Source: Arcobacteraceae bacterium
GTDB lineage: Bacteria > Campylobacterota > Campylobacteria > Campylobacterales > Arcobacteraceae
DNA length: 64,000 bases
NCBI GenBank assembly: GCA_965140475.1
Contig: OZ223243.1
Coordinates: 29,642 to 93,641, forward strand
Reading direction: 5' to 3'
Shown here one piece after another: positions 2,041 through 27,720 of this stretch (positions are counted from its first letter, which is position 1; each line of letters starts with the position of its first letter). The position numbers and the translations under genes were made by a program. The notes under the pieces were generated by a model, which worked only from the letters and a program-made list of their open reading frames with translations, was not told where the DNA came from and searched no databases.

Positions 2041-2088
2041 CTCTATTCCTTTATAATTTATAATATTTAATTGATTTTACCATAATAA

Positions 2089-5872: not shown

Positions 5873-5874
5873 GA

Positions 5875-6399
5875 CTACTCCTTAAAACTATTCACTGCAA
5901 TTTTAGAAAAAAGATCTCCTAAAGCTTTTGTTGCAGCATTTTTTACAGCTTCTTGTTTTTGTTGGTCTGATACAAGAGAGTTAGCCTCTACATTATAATC
6001 ATAATAGTTTGATACAGAAATATTTTTCTTCTCTTGATCTCTTTTTTGATATATTACAGAGATAGTTACATTTGCTCTATATGTTTTTGCATACCCTTCA
6101 TTATCTGAGGCCATTACACTATGTGATACACTTGCAAGTTTTACAAATACTTGAGTATCTGCTTCCTCTTTGTTTTGTGTTAATTGTGCATTAAATCTAC
6201 TTAAAACCATCTCATTCATTGCATCTTTTACTAAAACAGAATTTTGTGAGTTTTCAATATCCATCGCAAGGTCAACATATACTTTCCCACTAATCTCATT
6301 TTTTGCATAATATGAAGATGGTTTATATCCACAACCACTTAACATAAAGAGTGAATAGTTAAGAATTACAAATGAGATTATAATAGATTTAAAATTCAC
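5875..6399 (-). CDS. lptE: LPS-assembly lipoprotein LptE-like
   Basis: Lipobox LSGCGY. Size and position immediately downstream of leuS match the conserved leuS-lptE pairing. Confidence 0.7.
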   Translation of the reverse strand: MNFKSIIISFVILNYSLFMLSGCGYKPSSYYAKNEISGKVYVDLAMDIENSQNSVLVKDAMNEMVLSRFNAQLTQNKEEADTQVFVKLASVSHSVMASDNEGYAKTYRANVTISVIYQKRDQEKKNISVSNYYDYNVEANSLVSDQQKQEAVKNAATKALGDLFSKIAVNSFKE

Positions 6400-6401
6400 A
6401 A

Positions 6402-8873
6402 TTACCCTTTAACTACTAGATTAACTAATTTTTTTGGTACAACTATCTCTTTTATTATCTCTTTACCATCAATCCATTTTTTTGTATTTTCATTTTCTTT
6501 TGCTAGTGATAAGACTTCCTCTTTAGAAGCTTCAGGTGACACTTCTATTTCACCTCTTTTTTTACCATTTACAGTGATTGCTAGAGTAATAGTATCTTGT
6601 ACAAATACCTCTTGCTTTATTTCAATCACTTTATCAAAATTGCTTCTTGCAAATAACATATCACTTAATTCCCAACAGGTGTGAGGAATAATTGGCTCTA
6701 AGATATTTGTTAATATATAATACCCCTCTAACCAAATAGTAGAGTTTTCTTGTTTATTTAAAGCATTTAAAGCTTCCATTGCTGCTGCAATTAGAGTGTT
6801 AAAAGCATAAGTTTTATTCATAACCTCATCAGCTTTTTGTAAAGCTTCATATACTTTTTTTCTAGCTTCTTTTTCATCTTTTGATAAAGTGCTATGTTCA
6901 ATTCTCTCAATCAATGAAGCATTAGCACCTTCACATTTACCTACAGATTCATAAAATCTTCGTATAAATCTAAATGCTCCCTCAACTGCACTATCATTCC
7001 ACTCCAACTCTTTAGTTGGGGGTGCAGCAAACATCATAAATAGTCTTGCTGTATCAGCTCCATATTTTGATACTATCGCATCTGGGTCTACAACATTTCC
7101 TTTTGATTTTGACATCTTTGCACCATCTTTTAAAACCATCCCTTGTGTAAGTAGATTTTTAAATGGTTCAACACTATTTGTATATCCTAATTGATTTAAA
7201 GCTTTTGTAAAAAATCTCGCATATAAAAGGTGTAAAATAGCATGTTCAATCCCACCAATATATTGATCAACATCCATCCAATAATTTGAATTTTCTTTAT
7301 CAATACCAACTTCATTCCATTTTGATGGATTTGTTGCATATCGTAAGAAGTACCAAGAAGATTGCACAAAAGTATCTAAAGTATCTGTTTCTCTTCTTGC
7401 ATCTTTACCACATTTTGGACAAGAACAATTTTTCCATGTTGGGTGATTTTCCAGAGGGTTTCCCTCTCCTGTTATCTCAACATCTTCAGGTAATGCTATT
7501 GGTAAGTTTTCAATTTTTTCAGGAACAATTCCACAATCATCACAATGAACAAATGGAATTGGTGCACCCCAATATCTTTGTCGTGAAACTCCCCAATCTC
7601 TAAGTTTAAAATTAACTTTTTCTCTACCTAAATTATTTTTCTCAAAATGTTCAATAATAGCTTTTTTAGCAGTCACATTAGGCATATCTGTAAAATCATC
7701 ACTATCTACTAAAATTCCCTCTTCTGTGAAAGCCTCTTCAAGATTGATAATACCCATTTTTGTATCTATCACTATTTTGATATCAAGTTTATATTTACTA
7801 GCAAACTCAAAATCTCTTTGGTCATGAGCTGGAACTGCCATAACAGCTCCTCCACCATAACTCGCTAAGACAAAATTTGCAACCCATACTGGAATCTCTT
7901 TGCCAGTTAATGGATGGATTACAGTTATCTCTAAATCTAATCCTTCCTTTTCTTGCGTTGCTCTATCTCTCTCTGTTACTTTTTGCATAGCCTCTATTTG
8001 TGCTATTTTTTCATCACTTAAAAGTTTGTTTTCAACTATATATTTTACTATTGCATGTTCTGGTGCTAAAGCTGTGTAAGTTACCCCATAGATAGTATCT
8101 GGTCTTGTTGTAAATACTTCATATTTTTCAAAATTATTGTTTAATTTCTTTTTTGTATCATCACTTAAATTAAATTCAAACTCTAACCCTGTGCTTCTTC
8201 CTATCCAATTTTCTTGCATAGTTAAAACTTGTGATGGCCATTTTCCCTCTAAAGTTTTAAGGTCATCTAAAAGAGTTTGTGCATATTTTGTAATAGCCAC
8301 ATAATACCCAGGCATCTCTTTTTGTTCAACTGGTGTATCACATCTCCAACAACACCCCTCTTCAACTTGCTCATTTGCTAAAACAGTATGACAAGGTTCA
8401 CACCAGTTTACTGTTGAAGATTTTTGGTATAGAAGTCCCTCTTCGTACATTTTGATTATAAACTCTTGTTCCCATTTTGTATAGAGTTCATCACTAGTTG
8501 CGAACTCTCTTGTTTTAGAAAAAGACAATCCAAGACCTTCAAGTTCTTGTCTCATATAATCAATATTTTCATAAGTCCATTTTTTTGGATGGAGTTTATG
8601 TTTTATCGCTGCATTTTCTGCAGGCATCCCAAAGCTATCCCAACCAATTGGGTGTAATACATTAAAACCATTTTTTCTAAAATGTCTAGCAAAAGTATCA
8701 CCTAAACAATAGTTTCTAACATGTCCCATATGGATTCTTCCACTTGGATATGGGAACATACTTAATATATATTTTTTCTCTTTACCGCAATCTTCATCTA
8801 ATGGTTCAAAACTATTATTAGTAGCCCAAAACTCTTGCCACTTTTTCTCAATATTCTGTGGATTATAATCCAT
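6402..8873 (-). CDS. leuS: Leucine--tRNA ligase
   Basis: 823 aa with the HMGH-type motif ([10 protein letters not shown]) and KMSKS, and typical LeuRS length. Confidence 0.97.
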
Positions 8874-9289: not shown

Positions 9290-10861
9290 TTATAATAATT
9301 CTTTAAACATCAAATTAAATTTCACTTCACCTCTAAATTCATTTTTAGATATATTTGCAGTAAAACTTATCTTTTGACCAACTGCAACCTCATCAAAATC
9401 TATAAAAACAACCACCTCTATAGAGATATTTCCATTTGATACTTCTAATTTTGTATACTCTTTATTTTTCCCTATTTTGGTTGCATTTAAAACTTCCATA
9501 TTTGAAAAAGTAAATATTGGATAGGGATTGGTAATACCATATGGTCTGTAAGATTCTATAATATTATAAATATTTTCACCAACTTCGCTGATACAAAACT
9601 CACCTAAAGAGTTATTCTCAACATCCTCTTCTAGAACTATTTGTTGTTCTATATTTATATTTAACATCTCTTTAAATTGTGTTATTTTACTTTTATGCAA
9701 GCTAAGCCCTGCTGCTTGTTTATGTCCACCAAAACCATCTAAAACTTCACTACAGCTAGCAATGAGTTCATATAAATTAACTTGAGCTGTACTTCTAGCA
9801 CTGGCTTTTGCTTTTGTCTCATTGACACTAAAAACAATTGATGGTTTTTTGTATTTTTCACATAATTTTGAAGCAACTATCCCTATAATACCCTCATTCC
9901 AACTCTCACTTGCGACTACTACAACTTTATCATTTTCATCTACTTGTTCTTTTGCTTCATTGAAAATTTGGAGTTGTTCTTGTTTTCTCATCTCATTTAA
10001 TTCTATAAGATAATCTAATTGCCTATTTGCTTCAATCTCATCAAAAGAAAGTAAAAACTCTAAAGCAATTGAGGGGTCAGACATTCTCCCTGCACAATTT
10101 ATAAGAGGAGCTATTTTAAATCCAATATCCTCCTCTGTTACAACATCAAGTCCATATCTTTTTCTTAAAGCAACCATACAAGGTCTTTGAGAGTTTTGGA
10201 TACTTTTTAACCCCGCTTTTACCATTGTTTGATTTAAACTTTTCATAGGCATAATATCTGCAACAATTGCTAAAGAGAGTAAGTCAAAAAGTTCCATAAG
10301 GTTGTATTTAAAATTAAGACCATTTTTTATACTTGCACACAAATACCAAGCAACTTGTGCCCCACAAATATCTTTAAATGGGAAGGTACAATCACTTTGT
10401 TTCGGATTTACAATAGCATATGCATCAGGAAGTTCTAACCCAACAGTGTGATGATCTGTTATGATTAAATCCAATCCTCTTTGCTTACAAATATTTGCAG
10501 CTTCAACTGCACTAATTCCATTATCAACGGTGATAATGATCCCATCATAAATCTCTTCTAGTATATTTGGGCTCAATCCATAACCATGTTCAAATCTATT
10601 AGGGATAATATAGTTTATCTCAACCCCTAAAGCTGTAAAAAAATTTACCATAATAGCTGTTGAAGTAACCCCATCCACATCGTAATCTCCAACCACATTG
10701 ATTGTCTCATTATTGTGTATCGCTTTTATGATTCTAGTAGTTGCTTTTTGCATATCTTTAAAACTATCAGGAGTTGGTAAACTCTTAAGTGTCTTAAATT
10801 GATCATCCTTTACTCTACTGTGTAAAATCTCTTCTATATCATTTATTGTTAATCTTTTCAT
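9290..10861 (-). CDS. recJ: Single-stranded-DNA-specific exonuclease RecJ
   Basis: DHH family motifs GDYDVDGVTS, VDNG, TDHH and GGH. Confidence 0.92.
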   Translation of the reverse strand: MKRLTINDIEEILHSRVKDDQFKTLKSLPTPDSFKDMQKATTRIIKAIHNNETINVVGDYDVDGVTSTAIMVNFFTALGVEINYIIPNRFEHGYGLSPNILEEIYDGIIITVDNGISAVEAANICKQRGLDLIITDHHTVGLELPDAYAIVNPKQSDCTFPFKDICGAQVAWYLCASIKNGLNFKYNLMELFDLLSLAIVADIMPMKSLNQTMVKAGLKSIQNSQRPCMVALRKRYGLDVVTEEDIGFKIAPLINCAGRMSDPSIALEFLLSFDEIEANRQLDYLIELNEMRKQEQLQIFNEAKEQVDENDKVVVVASESWNEGIIGIVASKLCEKYKKPSIVFSVNETKAKASARSTAQVNLYELIASCSEVLDGFGGHKQAAGLSLHKSKITQFKEMLNINIEQQIVLEEDVENNSLGEFCISEVGENIYNIIESYRPYGITNPYPIFTFSNMEVLNATKIGKNKEYTKLEVSNGNISIEVVVFIDFDEVAVGQKISFTANISKNEFRGEVKFNLMFKELL

Positions 10862-10937
10862 ATTTTTATTATATCGTTTTTAAACTATTTTTAGATAAAA
10901 TAATTGCTATTTAATTAATTGAATTTAGGATTTATAA

Positions 10938-11858
10938 ATGGATAAAGCAAAATATATATGGATGGATGGTGAACTCACCCCTTGGGATGAAGCAAAGGTA
11001 CATGTTCTTACACATACACTACACTATGGAAATGGTGCAATTGAAGGTACAAAAGCATACAAAACAGTTGATGGTAGATGTGCTATTTTTAAACTAACAG
11101 AACACACACAAAGACTTATTAACTCTTCAAAAATGACACTTATGGATGTACCATACAGTGTAGAAGAATTAAATAATGCACAAGTAAAACTGTTACAAGA
11201 AAATGAACTTTTTGAAGGTGCTTATATAAGACCACTTGTATATCTTGGATATGGTGTTATGGGATTGTATCACAAAGATGCCCCTGTAAATGTATCAATT
11301 AGTGCATGGAAATGGGGAGCATATCTTGGTGATGAAGGTTTAAAAAAAGGTATTAGACTTAAAATTGCTTCAATGACTAGAACACCAAATACTTCAAGCA
11401 TGGGAAAAGCAAAAGCAGTTGCAAACTATTTAAATTCACAAATGGCAAAATATGAAGCTGTGGAAGCTGGATATGATGAAGCACTTTTAAGAGATGATCA
11501 AGGGTATATTGCAGAAGCTAGTGGAGCTGCATTTTTCATGGTTGAAAATGGTGTTTTAGTAACACCTCCAAGTGACAATGCTCTAAAATCAATTACACAA
11601 TCTACTATTATAGATTTAGCTAATGATATGGGTATTAAAGTTGAGAGAAGAAGAATCACAAGAGAAGAGATATATATTTGTGATGAGTGTTTCTTAACTG
11701 GAACTGCTGCTGAAGTTACACCTGTAAGAGATGTTGATGCTAGAACTATCGGTTGTGGTAGTAGAGGACCAATCACAGAAAAGCTCCAAAGAGCATATTT
11801 TGATGTGGTTGCAGGGAAAAATGAAAAATATAACAAATATTTAACATACATTAACTAA
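10938..11858 (+). CDS. ilvE: Branched-chain amino acid aminotransferase
   Basis: 306 aa of the class IV aminotransferase pattern (GNGAIEGTKAY, EASGAAFF, LTGTAAEVTPV). Confidence 0.92.
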   Translation: MDKAKYIWMDGELTPWDEAKVHVLTHTLHYGNGAIEGTKAYKTVDGRCAIFKLTEHTQRLINSSKMTLMDVPYSVEELNNAQVKLLQENELFEGAYIRPLVYLGYGVMGLYHKDAPVNVSISAWKWGAYLGDEGLKKGIRLKIASMTRTPNTSSMGKAKAVANYLNSQMAKYEAVEAGYDEALLRDDQGYIAEASGAAFFMVENGVLVTPPSDNALKSITQSTIIDLANDMGIKVERRRITREEIYICDECFLTGTAAEVTPVRDVDARTIGCGSRGPITEKLQRAYFDVVAGKNEKYNKYLTYIN

Positions 11859-14325: not shown

Positions 14326-14672
14326 ATGAAAATAGAATTGATTACAGGAGCAAGTAGAGGATTAGGTAGAGGTATGGCTTTGCATTTAGCACAAAAACTC
14401 TTACCGTTTATAAAAGATGGTGGTACTATAATTAATATTTTAACAGGTTTTAGTGCTTATGCTATGATGAAAGGAGCAATAGAAACTGATTTTGGCAATG
14501 GTACAGTTAGAAAGAATAAACAAGTTAATAACTTCATATCTTCACAAACTGCACTTGGTCGAGCAGGTTATGCTGATGATATAGGTGCTGCATTGGCTAA
14601 CATTGTATCAGAAGAATGCCATTCGATTAATGCCCAAAGAGAATAGAAATCTCAGGAGGTATGTTTTTATAA
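14326..14672 (+). pseudogene. Short-chain dehydrogenase/reductase remnant with internal deletions and a terminal frameshift
   Basis: Begins with the Rossmann motif TGASRGLG, then jumps directly to C-terminal SDR segments (SAYAMMKGAIE, TDFG, QTALGRAG). The expected tail RIEISGGMFL* is readable only in another frame, ending at TAA 14670-14672. Confidence 0.75.
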
Positions 14673-15544
14673 ATGGATAATCTATTTGAAAACTTATTAC
14701 ATTTAATTCAAATGCAGTCTTTAAAAGAAGGGATTAATCATACACTAATTCCTTCTGTAAATATTTTTAAATCATCAAATACAACTCAAACTCTACAAAC
14801 TATTTATGAACCTTCATTATTTATAATTATTCAAGGAAAAAAGCTCGTTACAATTAATAATCAAACAATAGAATATGATTCTTCCTCCTATCTTATTTCA
14901 TCTTCTTTTTTACCCGTATCTGGTAAAATTACTCAAGCAAGTGAAAATAAACCTTTTTTATCCCTGCAAATTACTTTTAATTTAAAACAAATATTTGAAA
15001 CTATTGAACAATTCTCTATTAAAGCTAAAAAAACTTCTCATACAAAATTAACCATATTTTCATATAATATAGCGGAAAATTTATTGGATGCGACTTATCG
15101 TTTAGTTAACTCATTAAAAAACCCAGAAGATATAAATGCACTTAGCAATTTATATCTAAAGGAAATTTTGTATAGATTACTTATCTCAAATAATAATACA
15201 GAACTTAAACAACTTGCATTTGTAGAAGGGAATGCTTATAAAGTTTATCAAACTATACTCTATATAAATGATAATTTATTTGATTTAATTTTTATTGAAG
15301 ATTTTGCAAAGTCTGTAAATATGAGTATTTCATCTTTTCATAAACATTTTAAAACAAAAACTCTGTTAGTATAAAGATTCAAAGACTACAAAAAGCAAAA
15401 AGCTTGATGGTGTCAGAGAATATGGATATTACAGGAGCTTCTTTTTCTGTTGGATATCAAAGCTCTTCTCAATTTAGTAGGGAGTACACAAGCTATTTTG
15501 GGATTAGCCCAAGTTTAGATATTAAAAATATTAAACAACAATAG
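14673..15544 (+). pseudogene. AraC-family regulator, frameshifted within the HTH domain
   Basis: The N-terminal AraC ligand-binding-like domain ORF stops at 15374 just after SISSFHKHFK. The second HTH (KIQRLQKAKSLM...GYQSSSQFSREYTSYFGISP) continues in a different frame to TAG 15542-15544. Confidence 0.75.
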
Positions 15545-15659
15545 ATAAAATATTAAATATTACAATATTAAGTAGATTTATTTAACATATATTAGATATT
15601 ATAAACAAATAATTATTAAAAGAGATATTTATATTTAAAAAAAATTTACAAGTTGGCTA

Positions 15660-15953
15660 ATGATGAATAAAAAAACTACTTATCTATTTTATACAATAAT
15701 TTCATTGCTTACTTTATTTTTCATACAAATTATTTATTTACAAAACAACAACTCTATGACAAAAGAGATGAAAGAGGCAAAAATAGAGTTTGTACAACTA
15801 GTGCAACTTCCTGATCTTGCAATCTCTACGGAGGCTACTTATATAAGACATAGAAGTTTAGCTGATATATTTAGTATCTATAAAGATGATGGAAATTTAA
15901 GAGAGTACTTCCCCTCAACATTCACATATTCACATTCACAAGGATACAAATGA
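15660..15953 (+). CDS. Small signal-anchored protein, unknown function; first gene of the ABC operon
   Basis: 97 aa with one N-terminal TM segment. ATGA overlap with the next gene. Confidence 0.5.
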   Translation: MMNKKTTYLFYTIISLLTLFFIQIIYLQNNNSMTKEMKEAKIEFVQLVQLPDLAISTEATYIRHRSLADIFSIYKDDGNLREYFPSTFTYSHSQGYK

Positions 15954-17143
15954 TAAAAGAAAAAATAAATTTATATTTAATTCAATATGCAATAAATGCA
16001 ATATTAAGACAAAAAAGTAAGAATTTTTTTATTCTAAATATTTTTATACTTTTAACTTTTTTATTAACTTCAATTTTTTTTATATCCAATTCTATTAAAT
16101 ATGAATTAAACTCTACTGTTGAAGCCTTACCACAAATCACAGTACAAAAAATAAAAGCTGGAAAATCATACGATATAGATACAAGTGTTGTTGATAATAT
16201 CTTGACCATCACTGGGGTTACTGATGCGGTTGCCAGAGTTTGGGGATATTATTATTTTGAAAATGTAGGAGTAAATTTTACTATTGTTGGATTAGATGCT
16301 TATGAGAATCAGTATAAAAAAAGCTTTGAGAATATTGTAAAAAAATTTGATCTAAATGAGTTAAGTGAAAATTCCTCCATGATAGTTGGACAAGGAGTAT
16401 TTGAATCTCTAAAAAAAGGATATTATTTACAAAATTACTTTAACTTTATTAAACCAGATGGCTCAATCAAAAAGCTTACAATCGCAGGAACATTTAATAG
16501 TGATATACAATTAGAATCAAATGATGTGATAATAATGTCAAAAGAAAATGCAAGAGAAATATTTGATATAAATGAAGATAAAACTACAGATATAGTTGTA
16601 AAAGTAGCAAACCCTGAAGAGATCAGTACAATATCACAAAAAATAAAATTGATGTATCCAGATACTAGAGTTGTAACTTCTGAAGATTTTAAAGTAAGTT
16701 ATCAAAATATTTTTAACTACAAAAGTGGAATATTTTTAACTATATTTATTATCTCATTATTTACTTTTTTTATGATTATTTATGATAAATCAAGTGGCTT
16801 AAGTAGTGAAGAAAAAAGAGAAATAGGAATACTTAAAGCAATAGGATGGACAGTAGATGATGTTTTAAAAGAAAAATTCTATGAAAGTTTTATTATCTCA
16901 TTTTTAGCTTATATGATAGGAATTATATCTGCATTTGCATTTGTTTATTTATTTCAAGCTCCACTTTTAAGAGATGTATTTGTTGGATATAGTGAATTAA
17001 AAACAACTTTTGAGTTGCCTTTTGTATTTGATTTTCAGACTTTATTTTTAGTATTTTTCCTAAGTGTTCCTATTTATATAGCAGCAACTATTATCCCTTC
17101 TTGGAGAACAGCAACACTTGAAACAGACGAGGTTATAAGATGA
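15950..17143 (+). CDS. FtsX/MacB-type ABC transporter permease (4 TM plus large periplasmic domain)
   Basis: 397 aa: TM1, a periplasmic domain of about 220 aa, then three C-terminal TMs containing the EIGILKAIGW motif typical of the FtsX family. Confidence 0.8.
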   Translation: MIKEKINLYLIQYAINAILRQKSKNFFILNIFILLTFLLTSIFFISNSIKYELNSTVEALPQITVQKIKAGKSYDIDTSVVDNILTITGVTDAVARVWGYYYFENVGVNFTIVGLDAYENQYKKSFENIVKKFDLNELSENSSMIVGQGVFESLKKGYYLQNYFNFIKPDGSIKKLTIAGTFNSDIQLESNDVIIMSKENAREIFDINEDKTTDIVVKVANPEEISTISQKIKLMYPDTRVVTSEDFKVSYQNIFNYKSGIFLTIFIISLFTFFMIIYDKSSGLSSEEKREIGILKAIGWTVDDVLKEKFYESFIISFLAYMIGIISAFAFVYLFQAPLLRDVFVGYSELKTTFELPFVFDFQTLFLVFFLSVPIYIAATIIPSWRTATLETDEVIR

Positions 17144-17820
17144 TAAAATTAGAAAATGTCACAAAAATATATGAGATAAATAATGACCATAAAGTAACTG
17201 CATTAGAAAATATAAACTTAGAGTTCAAAGAGGGTGAATTAATAGTACTAAAAGGAGCTAGTGGTAGTGGAAAAAGTACAATTTTATCACTTATTGCTGC
17301 TTTAAGTAAACCAACTACAGGGGAAGTAATAGTTGATAATAATCGAATATCAAAACTTCCAGATAATTTTGCGGCTCTTTATAGAAGAAAAAATATTGGT
17401 TTTATATTCCAAAAATATAATTTGATTCCAACACTAAGTGTAAAAGACAATATACTTTTACCCCTAGTACCAACAAATCCAGATGAAAAAGAAGCACTTA
17501 ATAAATTAAATCAAGTGATGGAAAAATTTGATATAAGCCATAAACAAAATATGATTGTAAGAAATTTATCAGGAGGTGAGCAACAAAGAGTTGCAATAGC
17601 AAGAGCCCATATAAATGATCCAAAAATTATAATTGCAGATGAGCCAACTGCAAATCTTGATGAAAAACTTTCACTTAATTTTATAGAAATTTTACGAAAA
17701 CTAAAACAATCAAATAAAACAATTATTGTAGCTACTCACGATCCATTGTTTTTTAATCTTGATTTTGTAGATAAAATTATAGAGATAAAAAATGGAACTA
17801 TTGGAGATATAGACGAATGA
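17140..17820 (+). CDS. ABC transporter ATP-binding protein (MacB/LolD-like)
   Basis: Walker A GASGSGKST, signature LSGGEQQR, Walker B IIIADEPT. ATGA overlaps on both sides. Confidence 0.92.
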   Translation: MIKLENVTKIYEINNDHKVTALENINLEFKEGELIVLKGASGSGKSTILSLIAALSKPTTGEVIVDNNRISKLPDNFAALYRRKNIGFIFQKYNLIPTLSVKDNILLPLVPTNPDEKEALNKLNQVMEKFDISHKQNMIVRNLSGGEQQRVAIARAHINDPKIIIADEPTANLDEKLSLNFIEILRKLKQSNKTIIVATHDPLFFNLDFVDKIIEIKNGTIGDIDE

Positions 17821-18773
17821 TGTTAGTTCCTGAAGTAATAGCGATATTAATACTTAATCTTATATTTGCTTTTTTTAGCTTAATAGCATTTGTATTAGCT
17901 TTAAGAATATTTTTTAAATGGGATTTAAATGCAACTACAAAACTTCAATATTCACTTGAAAAACAAAGTTTTTTAACAGCAACTATTATTAAATATATCT
18001 TTGCAATCAAATTGCCACTATTTTTATTTTTTATATTTACATTAGATAATATTTCAGATTTACTTACAGGAGCTATGTGTGCAGCAGGAGTAGTTGATGC
18101 AACAGAATATGGAACATATCTTTTTATACTTAAAATTATTAATATTTATCTTTTTGGATTTTGGTTAGTTTTACACTATTTAGATATAAAAAATAAAGAG
18201 TTAAAATATACTAGAATAAAATTTGGATTTTTTATTATTATTTTTTTACTATTTTTAACAGAAATTATATTTGAAGGTATTATGTTTAGTGCAATAGATA
18301 TTGACAAAATGGTAAGTTGTTGTGGTACTTTATATTCAAGTAGTGCTACTTCTTATATATCAAATATCTTTTTGATACAAACTCCTATATTATTATCTTT
18401 GTTTTATGGAAACTTTTTACTAATAGTAATATTTTACTATTTAAGACAAAAAGAGTTTTTTTCATTGGCAAATTTATTCTTCATAATTATCTCAATTATT
18501 AGTCTTATCTCATATTTTGGTACCTATATTTATGAACTACCTACACATCATTGTCCATTTTGTTTTTTACAAAAAGATTATTATTATGTTGGTTATTTCA
18601 TTTATACTCTACTTTTTGTAGGTACTTTTAATGGATTGACTGTTGGATTTATTCATGATAATACAAGAATAAAAAAAGCATATAAACTATCTCTTGTATT
18701 CAATCTTTTATTTTTACTTTTAGTAAGTAGTTACCCTTTAATATATTATATAAAAAATGGTGTTTGGTTATAA
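17817..18773 (+). CDS. Polytopic (about 8 TM) membrane protein with clustered Cys/His motifs, family not recognised
   Basis: 318 aa. Motifs GAMCAAG, VSCCG and THHCPFC all lie in loops opposite the K/R-rich loops, so they are predicted to be periplasmic. Confidence 0.6.
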   Translation: MMLVPEVIAILILNLIFAFFSLIAFVLALRIFFKWDLNATTKLQYSLEKQSFLTATIIKYIFAIKLPLFLFFIFTLDNISDLLTGAMCAAGVVDATEYGTYLFILKIINIYLFGFWLVLHYLDIKNKELKYTRIKFGFFIIIFLLFLTEIIFEGIMFSAIDIDKMVSCCGTLYSSSATSYISNIFLIQTPILLSLFYGNFLLIVIFYYLRQKEFFSLANLFFIIISIISLISYFGTYIYELPTHHCPFCFLQKDYYYVGYFIYTLLFVGTFNGLTVGFIHDNTRIKKAYKLSLVFNLLFLLLVSSYPLIYYIKNGVWL

Positions 18774-18774: not shown

Positions 18775-18816
18775 TTGATGTTTGTCAATATTTTTATTTT
18801 TATAAAATGGTACAAT
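18775..18816 (+). promoter_or_regulatory. Crp/Fnr-type box TTGATGTTTGTCAA plus -10 TACAAT (class II spacing)
   Basis: Perfect TTGAT-N4-GTCAA at 18775-18788, exactly 22 nt, then TACAAT at 18811-18816. The architecture is identical to the two nos boxes. Confidence 0.65.
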
Positions 18817-18842
18817 ATTAAAAAATAATTGGAGTGTATATA

Positions 18843-19328
18843 ATGCATATTTTAAGTTCTAAGTTTCGTAAAAAATTTGGTTTGTTTATTTTATTGACAG
18901 TATCGGTTAGTTCTTTGTTTGCTAATGATTTAGAAGTGAAACAACAAGATGTATCTCCCGAACAGTTACAGTCTCAAAATGTAGAAATAGCTAAATATGT
19001 TGCAATAGAATTATCAAAAGATTTGCCAAAGGTTGTAGATAAATATACAAAATTTACTTCAATTAAATCTGATAAAACAACACTTATATATACATTTGAA
19101 ATAAATATAGGTTCAAAGAGTGATGAAGCTGTAAAAAAAGAAGATCACAAAAGAATGGAAAAAGCTGTAGTACATGGAGTATGTAGTACTTCTAAAAGAT
19201 TTTTAGAAGCACAAATTGTCATAATTTATAATTATGTTAGTGCAAAATCTAAAGCCAAATTATTTCAATTTGAGATTGACCAAAATAAATGTTTTTTACT
19301 AGAAAAAATGGCATTTGCTAATGATTAG
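18843..19328 (+). CDS. Secreted protein, unknown function (start moved to ATG 18843)
   Basis: GGAG lies 9 nt upstream of ATG 18843. Signal peptide ends ...SVSSLFAND. The mature part has two Cys. No family recognised. Confidence 0.55.
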   Translation: MHILSSKFRKKFGLFILLTVSVSSLFANDLEVKQQDVSPEQLQSQNVEIAKYVAIELSKDLPKVVDKYTKFTSIKSDKTTLIYTFEINIGSKSDEAVKKEDHKRMEKAVVHGVCSTSKRFLEAQIVIIYNYVSAKSKAKLFQFEIDQNKCFLLEKMAFAND

Positions 19329-19779
19329 AAATATTCAATTTAATTTAATATTTTTATTGCTTTTTACTCTTCCTTTGTTATTCATTGGTTGTGAAAAAAA
19401 AGTAGATGATGGTATTACCAAAGTACACTGGGATAGAGATATGTGTGCAAGATGTGTTATGGTTGTTAGTGATAGAAAGAATACAGTTCAAATCAAAAAT
19501 CCCAATACAGGGAAAACATATATGTTTGATGATATTGGCTGCACTATTTTATGGTTTAATGAGGAAGAAATTATGTGGAAAGATAAAGCAGTTATTTGGA
19601 TTACTGATGTTAATAATGGCGAATGGATAGATGCTCGAACTGCATTTTATGATACTGAAAATATAACCCCTATGGCTTACGGATTTTCAGCACATAAAAC
19701 AAAAGATACAATCAAACAAAATCAAGAAATAATTAATTTTGAGGAAGTTTCAAGAAGAGTTTTACTAATCGGGAAATAA
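19315..19779 (+). CDS. NosL-family copper-chaperone-like lipoprotein (paralogue 1)
   Basis: Lipobox LFIGC, CARCVM (CxxCxM) followed by FDDIGC, and a C-terminal AYGFSAH. Clear paralogue of the 21691-22143 product. Confidence 0.75.
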   Translation: MLMIRNIQFNLIFLLLFTLPLLFIGCEKKVDDGITKVHWDRDMCARCVMVVSDRKNTVQIKNPNTGKTYMFDDIGCTILWFNEEEIMWKDKAVIWITDVNNGEWIDARTAFYDTENITPMAYGFSAHKTKDTIKQNQEIINFEEVSRRVLLIGK

Positions 19780-20379: not shown

Positions 20380-20832
20380 CTAAATACTCTTTTTACCATT
20401 ATATTTTTTAGAAAAATTTATTGCATCTTCTTCATTTTCAATAGCTACTAAATCATCGCCTGATGGTGAAATTGCACGACTTCCATAAATATAAAAAGCC
20501 TCTCTAGCATTTATTAATTTCATTGTCACATAATCAGTTACAATGATATCTTTTAAATCTTTTTCACTTTTTACACCAATATCAAACCACTTTCCAGGTC
20601 TATGATAAAACTCTATTAAAGATTTCGGACTTGAAAAAAAGATTTTTTTACCATTATTTAGTTCTATTTTGGCTGCCCATTGTGGATCTTTATAGATAAA
20701 AAAGTTTCTCACTAAACACCTAGTTTCCTTAGTGTAGTCCATTTGATAATTCATTGGAGCTTTCACTAGCAATGAATTTGAGCTATAAGCAACTGATATG
20801 AATATAAATATACCTATTAATAATTTGAACAT
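20380..20832 (-). CDS. nosL: NosL-family periplasmic protein with degenerate metal motif (paralogue 3, terminal gene of nos operon)
   Basis: Sec signal peptide without a lipobox. RCLVRNFFIYKDPQWAAKIE...FFSSPKSLIEFY aligns by eye with the CPVCGMF..YPKWAAQI...F motif I recall for epsilonproteobacterial NosL. Confidence 0.6.
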   Translation of the reverse strand: MFKLLIGIFIFISVAYSSNSLLVKAPMNYQMDYTKETRCLVRNFFIYKDPQWAAKIELNNGKKIFFSSPKSLIEFYHRPGKWFDIGVKSEKDLKDIIVTDYVTMKLINAREAFYIYGSRAISPSGDDLVAIENEEDAINFSKKYNGKKSI

Positions 20833-20860: not shown

Positions 20861-21688
20861 TTAAACTAAATCTTTTCTTTTAAAAATTTTAAATCCAAGA
20901 AAAGAAAAAACTAAACCTAATACAACAGGATACACAATAGAAAGAACTACAAAAGTTGTTTGCTTCATTGAATCTAAAATATAAAAGGCAACAGGTCCCA
21001 TAACTGTTAACTCAGGATCAAACAATGAGATAGCAGCAACTCTGAATATTTCCATAGGATTTATCATAGCAATAAATATAATCAATTGATCATCGAATCT
21101 TTGGCTCATCATTAAAGATATCAACGCAATATCTATAAATGCTAATAAAATTATCCAAACAAAAAAAGCAATCCCAAGTGCAACTTCACTTGATTTTACA
21201 AATGAAGAGATGAAAAAGGCAATTCCTAAAAAGACACTAGACATAGCAAATAAAAGTCCAGTATATAAAAAGAATATATCCCACGGTATACTAGCACCTT
21301 TAATTATTCCATATATTATAGCAACAACCATAGCAAATAATACAGGCAAATAAACAGTGATAAATCTTCCAATTATTTTACCCCAATAATATTGCTTAAG
21401 TGAAATAGGGAAAGATAACATATACTCTAAAATATGATTATCTCTATCTCCTGAAATTGACCGCACTGTGGTTATAAGTATAAATATAGGTAAAATTACA
21501 ATTGTAATTTGAATATACATAAGTAATAATCTACTTAATCCACTAAAGCCCATTACTTGTGACTCAGTCACTCCTGCTATAAAAAATATAGCTATCAATC
21601 CACCAAATACTAGTGAATAAATTAAAAACCATTTTGCTCTGATTGATTCTTTCAAATCTAAATATGCGATTAAGTATAAATTTTTCAT
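20861..21688 (-). CDS. nosY: Nitrous-oxide reductase maturation ABC-2 permease NosY
   Basis: 275 aa with 6 TM segments, an ABC-2 type permease located within the nos operon. Confidence 0.8.
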   Translation of the reverse strand: MKNLYLIAYLDLKESIRAKWFLIYSLVFGGLIAIFFIAGVTESQVMGFSGLSRLLLMYIQITIVILPIFILITTVRSISGDRDNHILEYMLSFPISLKQYYWGKIIGRFITVYLPVLFAMVVAIIYGIIKGASIPWDIFFLYTGLLFAMSSVFLGIAFFISSFVKSSEVALGIAFFVWIILLAFIDIALISLMMSQRFDDQLIIFIAMINPMEIFRVAAISLFDPELTVMGPVAFYILDSMKQTTFVVLSIVYPVVLGLVFSFLGFKIFKRKDLV

Positions 21689-21690
21689 TT

Positions 21691-22143
21691 TTAATATCCT
21701 AATATTTGTTTTCTAATTTTTGGATTTGCCATATGCTCACCCCTTAACATTCTCGTTATAACTTCTTCAAACTTAATACACTCACTACACTCATTTTCAT
21801 GGGCAGAAAAACCATACAACATTGGTGTTTTTGCATCTATTGCAAAATTTGCTCTAAAAGGATCTATATATTTTTTTGTATCATTTGAAAAAATTCTAGT
21901 TTCTGTTTTTTTTAAATCTATTTTTTCTTTTTTAGCCCATAAGATCATACACCCTATATCATCAAAATATACTATCTCATCATCGTATTTCATATCAGCC
22001 GTGTGTATATTTGTATCTGGTAATTTCATATTACATTGTGGGCAAATTCTTACTTGCTTCTTATTTTGATTACTATTTGCATTGCATCCAATATATAAAA
22101 ATACAAATAATACAATTAAAAATAAATTAGATAATAGTTTCAT
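21691..22143 (-). CDS. NosL-family copper-chaperone-like lipoprotein (paralogue 2), inserted between nosF and nosY
   Basis: Lipobox LYIGC, CPQCNM followed by FDDIGC, and LYGFSAH. Overlaps the nosF 3' end by 17 nt and ends 2 nt before nosY. Confidence 0.75.
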   Translation of the reverse strand: MKLLSNLFLIVLFVFLYIGCNANSNQNKKQVRICPQCNMKLPDTNIHTADMKYDDEIVYFDDIGCMILWAKKEKIDLKKTETRIFSNDTKKYIDPFRANFAIDAKTPMLYGFSAHENECSECIKFEEVITRMLRGEHMANPKIRKQILGY

Positions 22144-22768
22144 CTGAAATAATTTTTCCCATATCCATATAAATTTGTCTATTTACAATCTCTTCAACTT
22201 CTTCCAGCCTATGCGTTACAAATAATAATACTTTGTCATCTTCATTTTGTTTTAAAAGTCTATAAAAATCCTCCCTTGCTTTTGGATCAAGATTTGCTGT
22301 TGGTTCATCATAAATAATAATAGCACTTTTTTTTGCTAAACTAATAGCAATAAGAAGTTTTTGTTTCATACCACCACTTAGTTTAAAAAAGGATTTATTC
22401 ATATTCTCATTTATATCTAGTTTCATCTCATTTGCATAATGTCGTATCAACTCTTTATCTACTTGTGCACTTACACTAATATACTGAATTAATTCCGCAA
22501 TACTTAGTTTAATAGGTGGTGGTAATTGAGGAATAAAACTAATATTTTCCAAAACTTTAACTCTTTGTTTTATTGGATCTAAACCATTGATTAAAACATT
22601 TCCATTATCAGGATGATAATATCCTAAAATAGATCGAATAAGTGTAGTTTTACCCGCACCATTTGCACCCATAAGTGCTATATAATCATTTTTTTTAAAT
22701 TCACAACTAATATTATTTAATGATATATGTTGTCCAAACTTTTTTGTAAGATTTTTAACTTTTATCAT
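22127..22768 (-). CDS. nosF: Nitrous-oxide reductase maturation ABC ATPase NosF
   Basis: Walker A GANGAGKTT, signature LSGGMKQK, Walker B IIIYDEPT, in nos operon context. Confidence 0.88.
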   Translation of the reverse strand: MIKVKNLTKKFGQHISLNNISCEFKKNDYIALMGANGAGKTTLIRSILGYYHPDNGNVLINGLDPIKQRVKVLENISFIPQLPPPIKLSIAELIQYISVSAQVDKELIRHYANEMKLDINENMNKSFFKLSGGMKQKLLIAISLAKKSAIIIYDEPTANLDPKAREDFYRLLKQNEDDKVLLFVTHRLEEVEEIVNRQIYMDMGKIISDETII

Positions 22769-22770
22769 AA

Positions 22771-23676
22771 TTATACTAATCCTTTTAATCTAAAACCAAA
22801 ACTAAGAGCATCTTCATGACATACATCTATACACCTACCACATAAAGTACAATCAGCACCTGTAATATACTCTTTAGTTATATTTTTTTCTTCTCTTTGT
22901 TTATCATATTTAGCTTTTGTAATCTCTAATACCTGATTTTCAAAACATACATCATGACATACCATACAATGATCACAGTTGTCATTCCACTCTATTCTGA
23001 GTGCGGAAACTTTACCCACATATCCATAAGTAGTCCCTATTGGGCAGATATAAGTACACCATGCTCTTCTTGAAAAAAACACTTCCATTGCAAATACAAC
23101 TACAACCCAAATAAGTGCTACACTCCAACCATAAGCTACCATTCTACTTAATATTCCAACTACATTAAAAGTTTCAAATACTAAATAACCACTTGTAAAG
23201 GATAATAATAAAAATATAACCCAAAAAATATATCTTACTCTATGGTCAAATTTTCTATTTTTAATTATTTTTTTTGATACCAGTGTGTTATGCCATTTTT
23301 CACCAATTTCGCTCAGTATTCCATACGGGCAAACCCAAGCACAGTAACTTCTTCCACCAAGAAGTAAATATACTATCAAAATTGTTACCGTACCTATTAT
23401 CATATTTATAGGCAAATGATAAGTTGCCAAAAACATTTGTATCGTCATAAAAGGATCAATCATATGAAATCCTAAAAATCTTGAACCACTTAGTGTCCCT
23501 TCTAGCATTTGTAAATCTATAAAAAATGACAAGAAAAAGAAAAGGTGAATTGAAATTACTAAAACCCATCTTTTCATTCTATAACTAAATATAGATTTAC
23601 CCTCTTTTGTTTTATCAAAAAAAGTTGACCAAAAAGTTGTTTTCCCTATCGTTTCTCTGTTGTTATACTTATCCAT
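22771..23676 (-). CDS. nosH: NapH-like membrane-bound 4Fe-4S protein NosH
   Basis: 4 TM segments plus CAWVCPYG, CTYICPIG, CDHCMVCHDVC and CTLCGRCIDVC. Position matches the Wolinella-type cluster. Confidence 0.85.
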   Translation of the reverse strand: MDKYNNRETIGKTTFWSTFFDKTKEGKSIFSYRMKRWVLVISIHLFFFLSFFIDLQMLEGTLSGSRFLGFHMIDPFMTIQMFLATYHLPINMIIGTVTILIVYLLLGGRSYCAWVCPYGILSEIGEKWHNTLVSKKIIKNRKFDHRVRYIFWVIFLLLSFTSGYLVFETFNVVGILSRMVAYGWSVALIWVVVVFAMEVFFSRRAWCTYICPIGTTYGYVGKVSALRIEWNDNCDHCMVCHDVCFENQVLEITKAKYDKQREEKNITKEYITGADCTLCGRCIDVCHEDALSFGFRLKGLV

Positions 23677-23708
23677 AAAAAAACTCCATTTATATTTGGC
23701 TAAAAAAT

Positions 23709-24215
23709 CTATTTAGCATTATTTAATGCTTTAGCTCGTGCTGGAAATTCACCTATCTCTTTTGCTAATTCTCTTAAATCTTCTTTCTCAAGTGACATTA
23801 AAAGTCCTTTCATAACAACATTTTCTTTTCGTCCTGCTTTAAAATCAATTAAGTCTTTAAAAAGTTTTTCTTCTGTTTGTCCTATAAGTTTAGGTCCCAT
23901 CATTGGTTTACCATTTTGAAAACCAGAACCATTTACTCCATGACAAGAAGCACATTTACTTTTATATTTGTTACTAACTTTAAATGCACCTGCATTTCCA
24001 GCTTTATCTCTTAATGCAGTTAAAGCATCCATCTCTTTTTCTCTATCATCTTTCTCTAGAGGGTTTTTTGTAGTTTCAGAATTTTGCATTGTGTCACCAA
24101 AATCTTTAATAATTTTACCATGTTCACCACCATGATATGCTCTACCATTTGATGCTGTATATATCATAAGTCCTATAACTATTAATGTCGCTAAACCTGC
24201 TATTATATTTTTCAT
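23709..24215 (-). CDS. nosC2: Monohaem cytochrome c NosC2
   Basis: N-terminal anchor or signal, single CASCH haem motif, ATGA-type overlap with nosC1. Confidence 0.8.
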   Translation of the reverse strand: MKNIIAGLATLIVIGLMIYTASNGRAYHGGEHGKIIKDFGDTMQNSETTKNPLEKDDREKEMDALTALRDKAGNAGAFKVSNKYKSKCASCHGVNGSGFQNGKPMMGPKLIGQTEEKLFKDLIDFKAGRKENVVMKGLLMSLEKEDLRELAKEIGEFPARAKALNNAK

Positions 24216-24820
24216 TGTCTTGCTCCTAATTCTTCTATCTTTTTATTGAATAAAAATATCTCAGTAGATATATCTTTAATATCTTTATCTGTCATTTGTT
24301 TAATTAAATCTACCATCAAAGGATTTGATTTGGTTCCATTTTTAAAATCATTAATTGATTTATAAATAAATTCAGCATCTTTACCCAAAAGAGATGGTCC
24401 AATAACACCATTTGCATAGTCATCATGACATGCACTACATTTTAATTTAAAATTTGTACTTAACTGTTTAACGATTAACGATATTTGAACTCTTTCATAC
24501 GGACTTCTTATATGCATATTTGCATCTAATACTGTTCTTGGTTTTACACGAACTGAAGCATCTTTGTTTGCAGGTCTTGAATTTTCATCATAAGAACTTT
24601 TCACATTATAATCATAATAATATGCTTTTCCATCTTTTGTTTTTATTTCTGTTTTTTCTTTTTCTTCAACTTTTATTGCTTTTGGATTTGCATTTGTTAC
24701 AACTTCAATTTGAGGAGTAGTAGTTTTAATATTTTGATCAGTACTCTCTTCTTTTGTTTTATCTCCACACCCAATAAATACAAATAGTGTAATCAATAAT
24801 AGTGTTATATTATTTTTCAT
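24212..24820 (-). CDS. nosC1: Monohaem cytochrome c lipoprotein NosC1
   Basis: Lipobox FIGC and a single CSACH motif. Overlaps the nosG stop. Confidence 0.8.
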   Translation of the reverse strand: MKNNITLLLITLFVFIGCGDKTKEESTDQNIKTTTPQIEVVTNANPKAIKVEEKEKTEIKTKDGKAYYYDYNVKSSYDENSRPANKDASVRVKPRTVLDANMHIRSPYERVQISLIVKQLSTNFKLKCSACHDDYANGVIGPSLLGKDAEFIYKSINDFKNGTKSNPLMVDLIKQMTDKDIKDISTEIFLFNKKIEELGARQ

Positions 24821-25563
24821 ATTCTCATTCCTTTAATATAATAATCTTCATAAGATAATCGTGGTTTAATGATAATAGATGGTTGTGCAGTAGGACAAAC
24901 TTCTTGACATACACCACATCCTGTACAACCATCATAAATCTCTGGCTTGTTTATCCCTGCTTTATTTCTAACCATTGCAATTGCGCTAAGAGGATTTGGC
25001 ATAGGACACATATCTGCACATAAGGTACAAGGTTTCCCTTCATAACCATCAAATTTTTCTAATACTTTCTTTTCATATTCTGTTATATTTGTTTGATTTT
25101 TTATGAACTCTTTCATCTTATTATCATAACCTGCAGGTACAGGTTCATTTCTAACAGCTAAACAAGTTCTTTTATGTTCTAAAACTGCTATTCCCATTTT
25201 AATATCAGTTGCTTTTTCTGTATCATGATCCAAAGCACCACTAGGACAGGCCAATACACAAGGTACTGCCTCACAGGCATAACATCCTCTTTTATTTGCA
25301 TCTATAAAAGGAGTTCCAACACCATGTCCTTTTCCAAAATCTGATAACTCAATAGAATGATATGGACAAACTTGAAGACATTGACCACATTTTATACATA
25401 ACGCTAAAAACTCTTTTTCAGCAACTGCACCTGGTGGTCTTAATCTATTTTCAGCTTTTACACCCATAGGACTAAAAACCATTCCTCCACCACCAACAAG
25501 TGCTAATATACCTATTGTTGAGTATTTAATAAAATCTCTTCTATCCGTCTTTACTGTTGCCAT
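24817..25563 (-). CDS. nosG: NapG-like periplasmic poly-ferredoxin NosG (Tat signal)
   Basis: Twin-arginine RRDFIKYS and four Cys clusters including CIKCGQCLQVCP and CTGCGVCQEVCP. Confidence 0.88.
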   Translation of the reverse strand: MATVKTDRRDFIKYSTIGILALVGGGGMVFSPMGVKAENRLRPPGAVAEKEFLALCIKCGQCLQVCPYHSIELSDFGKGHGVGTPFIDANKRGCYACEAVPCVLACPSGALDHDTEKATDIKMGIAVLEHKRTCLAVRNEPVPAGYDNKMKEFIKNQTNITEYEKKVLEKFDGYEGKPCTLCADMCPMPNPLSAIAMVRNKAGINKPEIYDGCTGCGVCQEVCPTAQPSIIIKPRLSYEDYYIKGMRI

Positions 25564-25565
25564 TT

Positions 25566-26786
25566 TTAATCCTTTATCCTAACTTTTGGTTTTTCATCTT
25601 CCATTAAAAATACTGGAGTAGAAAAAGGAGCTAGTTTTGCTAGAAAATTTAATATTGAAATTACAGGAGAACCATAAAAGAATTTTACATTTGGATTGTA
25701 TATCCATAATTGATCTGCATATTGATAAACTTTATGAGGAGTATCCCCTATATTATCATCATTCCTATCAAATCCTGTATAATTATCCCAATAATTTCCA
25801 ACTATTTCATTTTCATTTGTTTTAGAACCCCTACTATCATTGACCACATCTTCAATATTTCCCATAATCACATTTTCTTTAATAACATTATTCTCACTTA
25901 AAGAGTGAAAATGTATAGCCTCACTGTTATATAATATTTTATTATTAGTTATCCAATTATTTGTACCTGGTTCAAAAGGTGATCTATCTACATATAAACC
26001 TTGAGCACAATATATTATAGTATTATCTTCAATTCGAAAATTTGACACATCTTTAAGTCCAATCCCCATACCTGTAGCCCCTAAAGAACTTTTTACAATA
26101 TTTCCAGTAGCAATTGTATCTTGTGAATACATAAAAAAAATACCAACAGAATTATATTTATATGTATTATTTCGTACATAATTCTTTCCTGCATACATAA
26201 AATGTAAAGAATATCTACCATATTCTCCATAATTTTCTTCTATTATATTTCCATGAGAATACCAAATAACCATATCCCTTGATTTTATCAAAGAATTTTT
26301 TTTGATAATATTATCATTACTATACCAAAGTCTTAAACCATCACCTCTAAGTCCTAAATCATAATCTTTTGATGTGATTGTATTATTTGAAATTATTGAG
26401 TTAGAAATTTGCTGAGCATCTATCCCAAATAAACAATCATCAATGATACAATCACTTACTTCACACTGTTTACCATTGCTTAAAGTAATTGCAGCATCTA
26501 ATTGATGATGTAAATTACCGCTATTAATTACTTTTAAATTTTTAAGTGTTACAAAAGAACTATTAACTTTTATAACAGTTCCAACTCCTTGCCCATCTAT
26601 AATAACACCCTCTTCTTTACCTATAATTGTTATAGGTTTATTTATTACAATATTTCCTTTATATACTCCTGCATTAAGTTGCAAAATAGAACCCTCAGGA
26701 ACATTATCAATTGCCTCTTGCAAAATATTTGTCCCCGCAAATAACGAAAGAGATAATAAGCAAATAGTAATAAATATTTTTAGCAT
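25566..26786 (-). CDS. nosD: Periplasmic beta-helix copper-maturation protein NosD
   Basis: Signal peptide and repeated right-handed beta-helix N/G/I-rich units. Position between nosB and nosG. Confidence 0.85.
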   Translation of the reverse strand: MLKIFITICLLSLSLFAGTNILQEAIDNVPEGSILQLNAGVYKGNIVINKPITIIGKEEGVIIDGQGVGTVIKVNSSFVTLKNLKVINSGNLHHQLDAAITLSNGKQCEVSDCIIDDCLFGIDAQQISNSIISNNTITSKDYDLGLRGDGLRLWYSNDNIIKKNSLIKSRDMVIWYSHGNIIEENYGEYGRYSLHFMYAGKNYVRNNTYKYNSVGIFFMYSQDTIATGNIVKSSLGATGMGIGLKDVSNFRIEDNTIIYCAQGLYVDRSPFEPGTNNWITNNKILYNSEAIHFHSLSENNVIKENVIMGNIEDVVNDSRGSKTNENEIVGNYWDNYTGFDRNDDNIGDTPHKVYQYADQLWIYNPNVKFFYGSPVISILNFLAKLAPFSTPVFLMEDEKPKVRIKD

Positions 26787-27670: not shown

Positions 27671-27720
27671 ACTATAACTAATTTCGAGAGAATATAACTT
27701 GACAATAATCAAGTTATATT
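27671..27720 (-). promoter_or_regulatory. Crp/Fnr-type box TTGATTATTGTCAA inside a perfect 12-bp-arm palindrome, plus -10 TATAGT
   Basis: The minus strand reads TTGAT-TATT-GTCAA (27712-27699), then 22 nt, then TATAGT (27676-27671). The palindrome AATATAACTTGA/TCAAGTTATATT spans 27691-27720. Confidence 0.6.

Follow-up and report, generated by a model that had tools for sequence, protein, structure and literature searches.

Positions 15660 to 18773 of the analyzed DNA, a window of 64,000 nucleotides (nt) with a GC content of about 28% from a member of the Arcobacteraceae (contig OZ223243.1), harbor a four-gene module. At what we judge to be even chances, it forms the core of a conserved envelope cassette that traffics Cu(I) and consists of a NosL-type chaperone, a small anchored protein, an FtsX-type permease, an ATP-binding cassette (ABC) ATPase and an eight-helix membrane protein, here termed TM8. 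The module comprises the following open reading frames (ORFs):

15660-15953, plus strand: ORF1, 97-aa protein without a Pfam or NCBIfam family
15950-17143, plus strand: ORF2, 397-aa FtsX-type permease (PF02687)
17140-17820, plus strand: ORF3, 226-aa ABC ATPase, partner of the FtsX permease (PF00005)
17817-18773, plus strand: ORF4, 318-aa TM8, predicted eight-helix inner-membrane protein (N-out/C-out) of an unnamed family

The ORFs 1 to 4 are joined by ATGA overlaps of 4 nt at positions 15950, 17140 and 17817, exactly where an earlier reading of this DNA, made from its letters and translations (hereafter the sequence-only reading), had placed them. The TM8 of the window is 97% identical to that of the metagenome-assembled genome (MAG) JAIOSF010000004.1.

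The cassette is conserved far beyond the window. For Campylobacterota a set of 80 loci was examined, each count being limited to the loci with enough flanking sequence. In 66 of 68 loci the gene immediately before TM8 was the ABC gene. FtsX occurred in 60 of 68, and 57 of 68 had a homologue of the 97-aa protein immediately before ftsX. Upstream of the cassette, 49 of 62 loci carried a NosL-domain gene, and a homologue of the 154-aa NosL-like lipoprotein of the window (see below) was found downstream of TM8 in 32 of 74. The order small protein, FtsX, ABC, TM8 is also kept in Desulfobulbaceae, Geobacteraceae, Nitrospirota and unclassified relatives, where a Pfam-positive NosL gene lies directly upstream of the cassette in eight of the nine loci. 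The arrangements outside Campylobacterota (p followed by a number denotes the small protein) are:

Desulfobulbaceae: redoxin, NosL, p93, FtsX, ABC, TM8
Geobacteraceae (L085): NosL, p92, FtsX, ABC, TM8; adjoining are a redoxin, a CusA/CusB-YHS-like resistance-nodulation-division (RND) pump and a protein with a Cu-oxidase_2 match
L087: a first FtsX-ABC unit joined to a PCuAC-family (PF04314) protein, then NosL, p101, FtsX, ABC, TM8
L088: NosL, p105, FtsX, ABC, TM8
L089: P-type ATPase, Fer4_5 protein, DsbD_2, NosL, p104, FtsX, ABC, TM8
L090: redoxin, NosL, NosL, p87, FtsX, ABC, TM8
Nitrospirota (L086): p89, FtsX, ABC, TM8, then a DtxR-like regulator; without NosL

Other neighbors of the cassette are copper- or thiol-related and include TlpA-like redoxins, DsbD_2 proteins, PCuAC, CusAB-like genes and a P-type ATPase. 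In addition, one TM8 family member (P0272) is fused to a SCO1/SenC domain. The TlpA-like redoxin of the Desulfobulbaceae carries a CxxC motif. The upstream NosL proteins carry CPxCGM, the counterpart of the Zn/Cu site (Cys-x2-Cys-x-Met) seen in crystallised NosL (PMC8457098). Carriers of the cassette come mainly from sulfidic or anoxic habitats and belong to Sulfurimonas, Sulfurovum, Arcobacteraceae, Desulfobulbaceae, Geobacteraceae and Nitrospirota.

TM8 has more than 1,800 close homologues, every one of them unnamed and without a Pfam domain. In an exhaustive profile search, 898 clusters at 50% identity were found (E ≤ 1e-3), and a motif scan of species-representative genomes yielded at least 574 stretches that encode a TM8 relative. 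The family ranges over Campylobacterota, Desulfobulbaceae, Geobacteraceae and Nitrospirota. Conserved positions were determined in an alignment of 50 sequences across these groups, with 27-80% identity to the protein of the window. The motifs GAMCAAG, VSCCG and THHCPFC start at residues 85, 166 and 243 and lie in the loops between transmembrane (TM) helices 2-3, 4-5 and 6-7; the five Cys occupy positions 88, 168, 169, 246 and 249. Among the invariant positions are W35, Q44, E48, G85-A-M-C88, G91, W116, D123, K135 and C168-C169, as well as Y237, Y239, P242, H244 and C246-P-F248. Position 249 is a Cys in 25 and an Asp in 25 of the 50 members, and position 245 is variable (His or Arg).

Within the same alignment, the loops TM1-2, 3-4, 5-6 and 7-8 contain on average 10.5 Lys and Arg, against 3.3 for both termini and the three Cys loops taken together, though these are longer. 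Because of this charge bias, the three motif loops are assigned to the periplasm by the positive-inside rule. The sequence-only reading had all five Cys and the HH pair facing the periplasm. The periplasmic position of the loops stands, whereas the invariant set is limited to M87, C88, C168, C169, H244 and C246; H245 had to be removed from the conserved site, given the His/Arg variation at 245, and position 249 stays in it as a Cys/Asp position, given the even division there. The Cys/Asp swap is what one expects of a metal ligand, and an obligatory redox CxxC would not allow it.

This swap bears directly on an alternative in which TM8 is a membrane thiol-disulfide oxidoreductase of the DsbB/VKOR/CcdA kind that keeps the Cys residues of NosL and other chaperones in their proper redox state, the ABC pair having a separate role. 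In half of the TM8 family CPFC is indeed a CxxC motif, TlpA-like redoxins and DsbD_2 proteins are frequent neighbors, and one of 24 diverse members matched VKOR, weakly, with an E-value of 0.015. However, the Asp at position 249 in half of the aligned members (25 of 50) rules out a CxxC disulfide as the conserved function. Moreover, the comparison of TM8 with a neighboring DsbD_2 protein by hhalign gave a probability of 0.1% and no relation, DsbB, VKOR and DsbD were absent from the Foldseek matches of TM8 at E ≤ 10, and the conserved translational coupling to an ATPase is atypical of the DsbB, VKOR and CcdA families. A redox relay of this kind is rated as decidedly unlikely.

No known relative of TM8 was detected at the level of sequence or fold. 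It matched no family in Pfam or NCBIfam, the scan of the 24 diverse members against Pfam at E ≤ 1 returned nine unrelated single matches, and the family profile had no match among the PDB sequences at E ≤ 10. AlphaFold2, run on the family alignment, gave an eight-helix model with a predicted local distance difference test score (pLDDT) of 88.3 and a predicted TM-score (pTM) of 0.85, in which the loops show the lowest confidence (means of 10-residue blocks between 54 and 84). A Foldseek search of the PDB with this model found no significant neighbor, the best match being CcmF with an E-value of 0.24 and a TM-score of 0.28; an earlier, weaker model (pLDDT 74.5) also returned nothing significant.

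Behind an N-terminal KK, the 97-aa protein has a membrane anchor and, toward its C-terminus, a conserved domain of about 60 aa; it contains no Cys. Judged by the N-terminal KK, the anchor would be oriented N-in, and the C-terminal domain is presumably periplasmic. The conserved motif is L-x-D-L-A-x-x-T-E-A-x-Y-x-R-H ... E-[YH]-F-P-[ST]. The protein had no match in Pfam, NCBIfam or the PDB sequences. BLASTP homologues were found in Desulfobulbaceae, Nitrospirota and L087, so that the family is conserved across phyla. By these searches TM8 and the 97-aa protein are both uncharacterised families, in accordance with the sequence-only reading, which had recognised neither of them.

For the permease, ORF2, the C-terminal four-helix FtsX domain PF02687 was matched with 54.1 bits (cut-off 25.5), and residues 37-233 scored 23.9 bits against MacB_PCD, the large periplasmic core domain that lies between TM1 and TM2 in such permeases, slightly below the cut-off of 27. 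MacB_PCD matches, listed unmarked, were also present in the permease orthologues of L087 and L088. The ATPase, ORF3, matched ABC_tran (PF00005) with an E-value of 2.7e-36. The assignment of the two ORFs to a MacB/FtsX-type (type VII) ABC pair, already proposed from the translations, was hence confirmed. The best NCBIfam model for the permease was lolCE (TIGR02212; 53 bits, cut-off 362.45). For ORF3 the best models were FtsE (TIGR02673; 199.9 bits, cut-off 264.85), LolD (TIGR02211; 194.3 bits, cut-off 307.75), DevA and MacB-NBD, every one under its cut-off. The sole PDB sequence match of ORF2 was 5xu1_M of S. pneumoniae (E = 7e-4). Since the specific models LolCE, LolD, FtsE and MacB stayed far under their cut-offs, ORF2 and ORF3 are placed in the type VII superfamily but in no named system; as classified by these models, they are a split type VII (FtsX/MacB) ABC pair outside all of them. 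The translation of ORF2 contains no Cys and no His, which fits a purely mechanical role of the permease.

The similarity to Lol proteins leads to a further alternative, in which a Lol-like type VII machine extracts or positions NosL-type lipoproteins and TM8 acts as the membrane receptor. Apart from the rank of lolCE and LolD among the best models, the lipoboxes of the 154-aa and 150-aa NosL-like proteins of the window are in agreement with it. The lolCE score, however, reflects general FtsX similarity only, and the invariant Met/Cys/His site of TM8 as well as the associations with PCuAC and SCO1 are left unexplained. Lipoprotein handling is for us a very unlikely function of the cassette.

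The trafficking of Cu(I) is favored on several grounds: the constant partners of the cassette are copper chaperones and thiol-maintenance proteins, the invariant TM8 residues M87, C88, C168, C169, H244 and C246 are thiophilic and predicted to face the periplasm, the FtsX subunit lacks Cys and His, and the cassette encodes no membrane-fusion adaptor. Copper as the ligand, a physical complex of the components and the direction of transfer are suggested by this context. In the proposed mechanism, TM8 would bind Cu(I) at a soft-ligand site made of Met, three to four Cys, His and Cys/Asp from the three periplasm-facing loops. The FtsX/ABC pair would be a type VII mechanotransducer without metal ligands of its own. 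Cytoplasmic ATP hydrolysis would move the periplasmic domain of FtsX, possibly together with the 97-aa partner, and by this movement tightly bound Cu(I) would be passed between TM8 and the NosL-type chaperones, while the thiolates would be kept reduced by nearby TlpA-like redoxins or DsbD_2 proteins. The most plausible direction would be supply to the maturation of periplasmic cuproenzymes. For this genome, that would mean delivery to the 154-aa NosL-like lipoprotein and the clade II Nos system next to it, and for other lineages delivery to different cuproenzymes. More tentatively, and only as a possibility, anaerobes and microaerobes of sulfidic habitats may use the cassette as a hitherto unrecognised, ATP-powered route for loading periplasmic chaperones of the NosL type (and of the PCuAC/Sco type) with Cu(I). 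TM8 would then be a membrane metallochaperone or channel of new fold, run by a type VII ABC mechanotransducer.

Instead of supplying copper, the module might be a MacB-like exporter that rids the inner membrane or the periplasm of surplus thiophilic metal (Cu, Ag, Hg or Cd) or of a metal-ligand complex, with TM8 as the capture site and NosL as a periplasmic sink. The vicinal CC pair of TM8 may resemble that of the mercury transporters MerT and MerF; the Mer-type Hg(II) transporters (MerT/MerC/MerF) are short proteins of 2-4 TM helices that have vicinal or CxxC Cys pairs and are encoded in mer operons, and mer genes were present in none of the contexts examined. The cassette of the Geobacteraceae adjoins the CusA/CusB-YHS-like RND pump, MacB-type systems are exporters, and PA4064/4065 exports a metallophore (PMC11481552). 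On the other hand, neither a membrane-fusion nor an outer-membrane component belongs to the cassette in any annotated context. No gene for a membrane-fusion protein of the MacA/HlyD type was found inside the cassette in the 11 Pfam-annotated contexts, the CusB-like gene of L085 being part of the adjacent RND pump, which argues against a tripartite efflux pump. Furthermore, the partners are mostly factors of cuproenzyme biogenesis (NosL, TlpA-like redoxin, PCuAC, SCO1 and the nos cluster). Detoxification is considered unlikely.

Several points weigh against copper trafficking. The metal specificity is deduced by guilt by association alone, and the convergence of the conserved Cys, His and Met residues of TM8 on one site is a proposal drawn from their positions in the sequence. 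Handling of bare metal ions is not known for type VII ABC systems. The sub-lineage of the window (L002, L003) is without an upstream NosL gene, as is the nitrospirotal L086, in which the neighbor is a regulator of the DtxR/FeoA type. Some genomes have ABC and TM8 but no ftsX or p97 close by; in L047 neither was found within 9 kb. Finally, the one comparable metal-regulated split MacB system, PA4063-4066, was reinterpreted as an exporter of pyochelin (PMC11481552).

In L047, a Sulfurimonas MAG, ABC and TM8 form a two-gene unit (9333-10960) between gpmI/fab genes and mraY, from which the ATPase and TM8 appear to be the most tightly linked pair of the cassette. The ftsX-abc junction, equivalent to position 17140 of the window, is a recurrent insertion site in relatives, with 1-4.5 kb inserted in 8 of 66 loci. 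Insertions were seen in L006, L017, L021, L028, L030, L038, L043, L056 and L091. Their cargo is often defence- or mobile-element-like: an MmeI-type restriction-modification system with Abi_2 (L017), a DNA methylase (L030), RhuM (L021), ORF6N (L091) and AAA_14/DUF4143 (L056). The remaining insertions hold PAS genes, or metK and a response regulator. In L001, whose TM8 is 80% identical to that of the window, the region upstream of the cassette (1-7813) encodes a 918-aa NosL-Fer4_5-DUF4198 fusion, two DsbD_2 proteins, a TonB-dependent receptor, a two-component system and a 381-aa double-NosL protein, and represents a putative larger metal-acquisition island. A second copy of nosD is located downstream in this locus.

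In the window, the module is followed on the same strand by two genes:

18834-19328, plus strand: 164-aa secreted protein, with ATG 18843, after GGAG, as the likelier start
19315-19779, plus strand: 154-aa NosL-type lipoprotein with the lipobox FIGC, C44-x2-C47-x-M49, D72-D-x-G-C76 and T-P-M120

A secreted protein followed by a NosL-type lipoprotein had been predicted at this place, and the two genes bear this out, the lipoprotein having a complete NosL ligand set. The 164-aa protein has no family match in Pfam or NCBIfam. Its homologues are limited to seven ORFs, all in loci of the Arcobacteraceae type, and it is a lineage-specific accessory. The 154-aa lipoprotein scored 21.1 bits against Pfam NosL (PF05573; E = 4.2e-4), slightly under the cut-off of 24. 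In an alignment of its orthologues and the 150-aa paralogue (A5), C26, C44, C47, M49, D72/D73, C76 and M120 are invariant. The A5 profile aligned weakly with the P. stutzeri NosL 7osf_H (E = 0.11), with lipobox and CxxCxM in register; the single sequence had no match in the PDB. The ligand set of the lipoprotein corresponds to that of the S. denitrificans NosL (PMC8457098). The Zn/Cu site of NosL was described to consist of mixed Cys, Met and Asp ligands, with a Cys/Asp swap in clade II (PMC8457098).

Two further genes of the window concern NosL. The nos-cluster gene at 20380-20832 (minus strand) matched Pfam NosL with an E-value of 6.9e-14, yet it encodes no lipobox and has kept one Cys, with RCLVRNF in place of CPxCGM. 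The 150-aa lipoprotein at 21691-22143 (minus strand), between nosF and nosY, has a lipobox and the full NosL ligand set. Both the 150-aa and the 154-aa lipoprotein score at or under the Pfam NosL threshold. From the distribution of these ligands, the functional Cu-binding 'NosL' of the clade II nos cluster may have been misassigned.

The module converges on this clade II nos cluster, as the sequence-only reading had stated. The nos genes, encoded on the minus strand, extend from nosL (20380) to nosZ (27747-30344), and the nosDFY set (20861-26786, minus strand) is next to the module. Of the 32 Campylobacterota loci flanked by 9 kb or more on each side, 12 have nos genes within 10 kb; of the 52 with 5 kb or more downstream, 20 have them in the flanks. 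No nos genes were nearby in any of the nine annotated loci of Desulfobulbaceae, Geobacteraceae, Nitrospirota and relatives. The nos association of the cassette is frequent, not obligatory, and lineage-specific. The module was also considered as a part of the nos operon proper; this was rejected, as the two are convergent, a PAS gene lies in between, and the cassette is nos-free elsewhere. A periplasmic copper- or thiol-handling machine linked to nitrous oxide (N2O) respiration had been suggested in the sequence-only reading. The copper/thiol context, found in three phyla, agrees with the first part, whereas the N2O link is not a defining one. As judged by the flanks of these loci, the block is common away from nos genes, which goes part of the way to the refutation that the sequence-only reading had set out for its proposal.

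The vicinity of nos genes in many Campylobacterota would also be in accordance with sulfur supply, in which TM8 cysteines carry sulfide or persulfide for the assembly of the [4Cu:2S] CuZ center of NosZ. The carriers are sulfur-cycling organisms, and TM8 is cysteine-rich. Nevertheless, nos genes are missing nearby in nine of nine loci outside Campylobacterota and in most of the well-flanked loci within them, and what constantly accompanies the cassette is a copper chaperone rather than a sulfurtransferase. Such a function is highly improbable. If the cassette traffics copper, its probable destination in this genome is the neighboring clade II Nos system.

A terminator-like site on the plus strand was not found between 15300 and 20400. 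This agrees with the earlier description of an operon that runs without a terminator into a Crp/Fnr-box promoter; the box itself is present after the TM8 stop but is only marginally enriched and therefore weak:

18775-18788, strand not assigned: Crp/Fnr-like palindrome TTGATGTTTGTCAA, after the TM8 stop and about 22 nt upstream of TACAAT

The loose palindrome pattern has 8 matches in the window compared to 3.85 expected, and 5 of 100 shuffles reach 8, for which reason the box was dropped as strong evidence. Weakly, TTGATGTTTGTCAA suggests a possible internal promoter for the two downstream genes. More TTGA-N6-TCAA palindromes are located at 27699-27712 and 59503-59516; one, TTGACAATAATCAA, lies in the nosZ-nosB intergenic region.

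Directly upstream of the module, a gene for an AraC-family regulator (14673-15545, plus strand) is broken. Its frame stops at 15372-15374 and the helix-turn-helix part continues in another frame, while the orthologue in L002, the 97%-identical relative, is intact with about 304 aa. The broken gene is either a pseudogene or an assembly error. At 14326-14646 (plus strand), a 106-aa remnant of a short-chain dehydrogenase has the N-terminal GASRGLG motif followed at once by a C-terminal fragment, as if an internal part had been deleted.

The nearest functional analogue of the cassette is NosDFY-NosL of P. stutzeri (PDB 7osf-7osj), which likewise combines an ATP-driven ABC system of the inner membrane with a periplasmic NosL-type Cu(I) lipoprotein. 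There, the permease NosY is of the ABC-2 type, and copper is accepted by NosD, a beta-helix protein of the periplasm. The cassette, in contrast, has an FtsX/MacB-type permease, neither NosD nor NosY, and a candidate metal site in a novel eight-helix protein, and it occurs without nos genes nearby. It differs from MacB, LolCDE, FtsEX and HrtBA in having no MacA-like adaptor, EnvC-like partner or LolA, and it contains two unique conserved partners, the 97-aa protein and TM8. The C-P-F-[C/D] motif of TM8 presumably resembles the CPC/CPx Cu(I) motif of P1B-type ATPases. The nearest architectural analogue is the Zur-regulated PA4063-PA4066/ZrgABCDE, in which a separate ATPase and an FtsX permease are encoded together with periplasmic metal-binding proteins in a context of metal homeostasis (PMC11481552). 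These systems are linked to zinc or cobalt and have neither a polytopic Cys-rich membrane subunit nor NosL. The function of PA4063-PA4066 is debated, and pyochelin export was proposed (PMC11481552). With the Cys/Met/Asp heterometal site of NosL (PMC8457098), as with the P1B-type ATPases, TM8 shares a motif resemblance only (C-P-F-[C/D] together with Met, Cys and His); homology in sequence or fold was not detected.

No description of the NosL-FtsX-TM8 cassette was found in full-text literature searches, in which the matches for NosL and Geobacter concerned only the structural homology of MerB and NosL. The machine had been called undescribed in the sequence-only reading, and these searches support this. 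The cassette comprises a novel membrane partner, TM8, and a task that is new for a type VII ABC system and probably metal-related. The source of copper for NosL and other periplasmic chaperones was left unexplained in the structural study of NosL (PMC8457098), and the molecular mechanism of copper acquisition needs study according to a 2025 preprint on sulfidic waters and their N2O reduction, since sulfide precipitates copper. If the proposed function is correct, the cassette would be where NosL obtains its copper, metal trafficking would be added to the tasks of type VII ABC mechanotransducers, and a large orphan family of about 900 clusters at 50% identity would gain a function. The cassette would also be a possible control point of N2O reduction in copper-poor environments.

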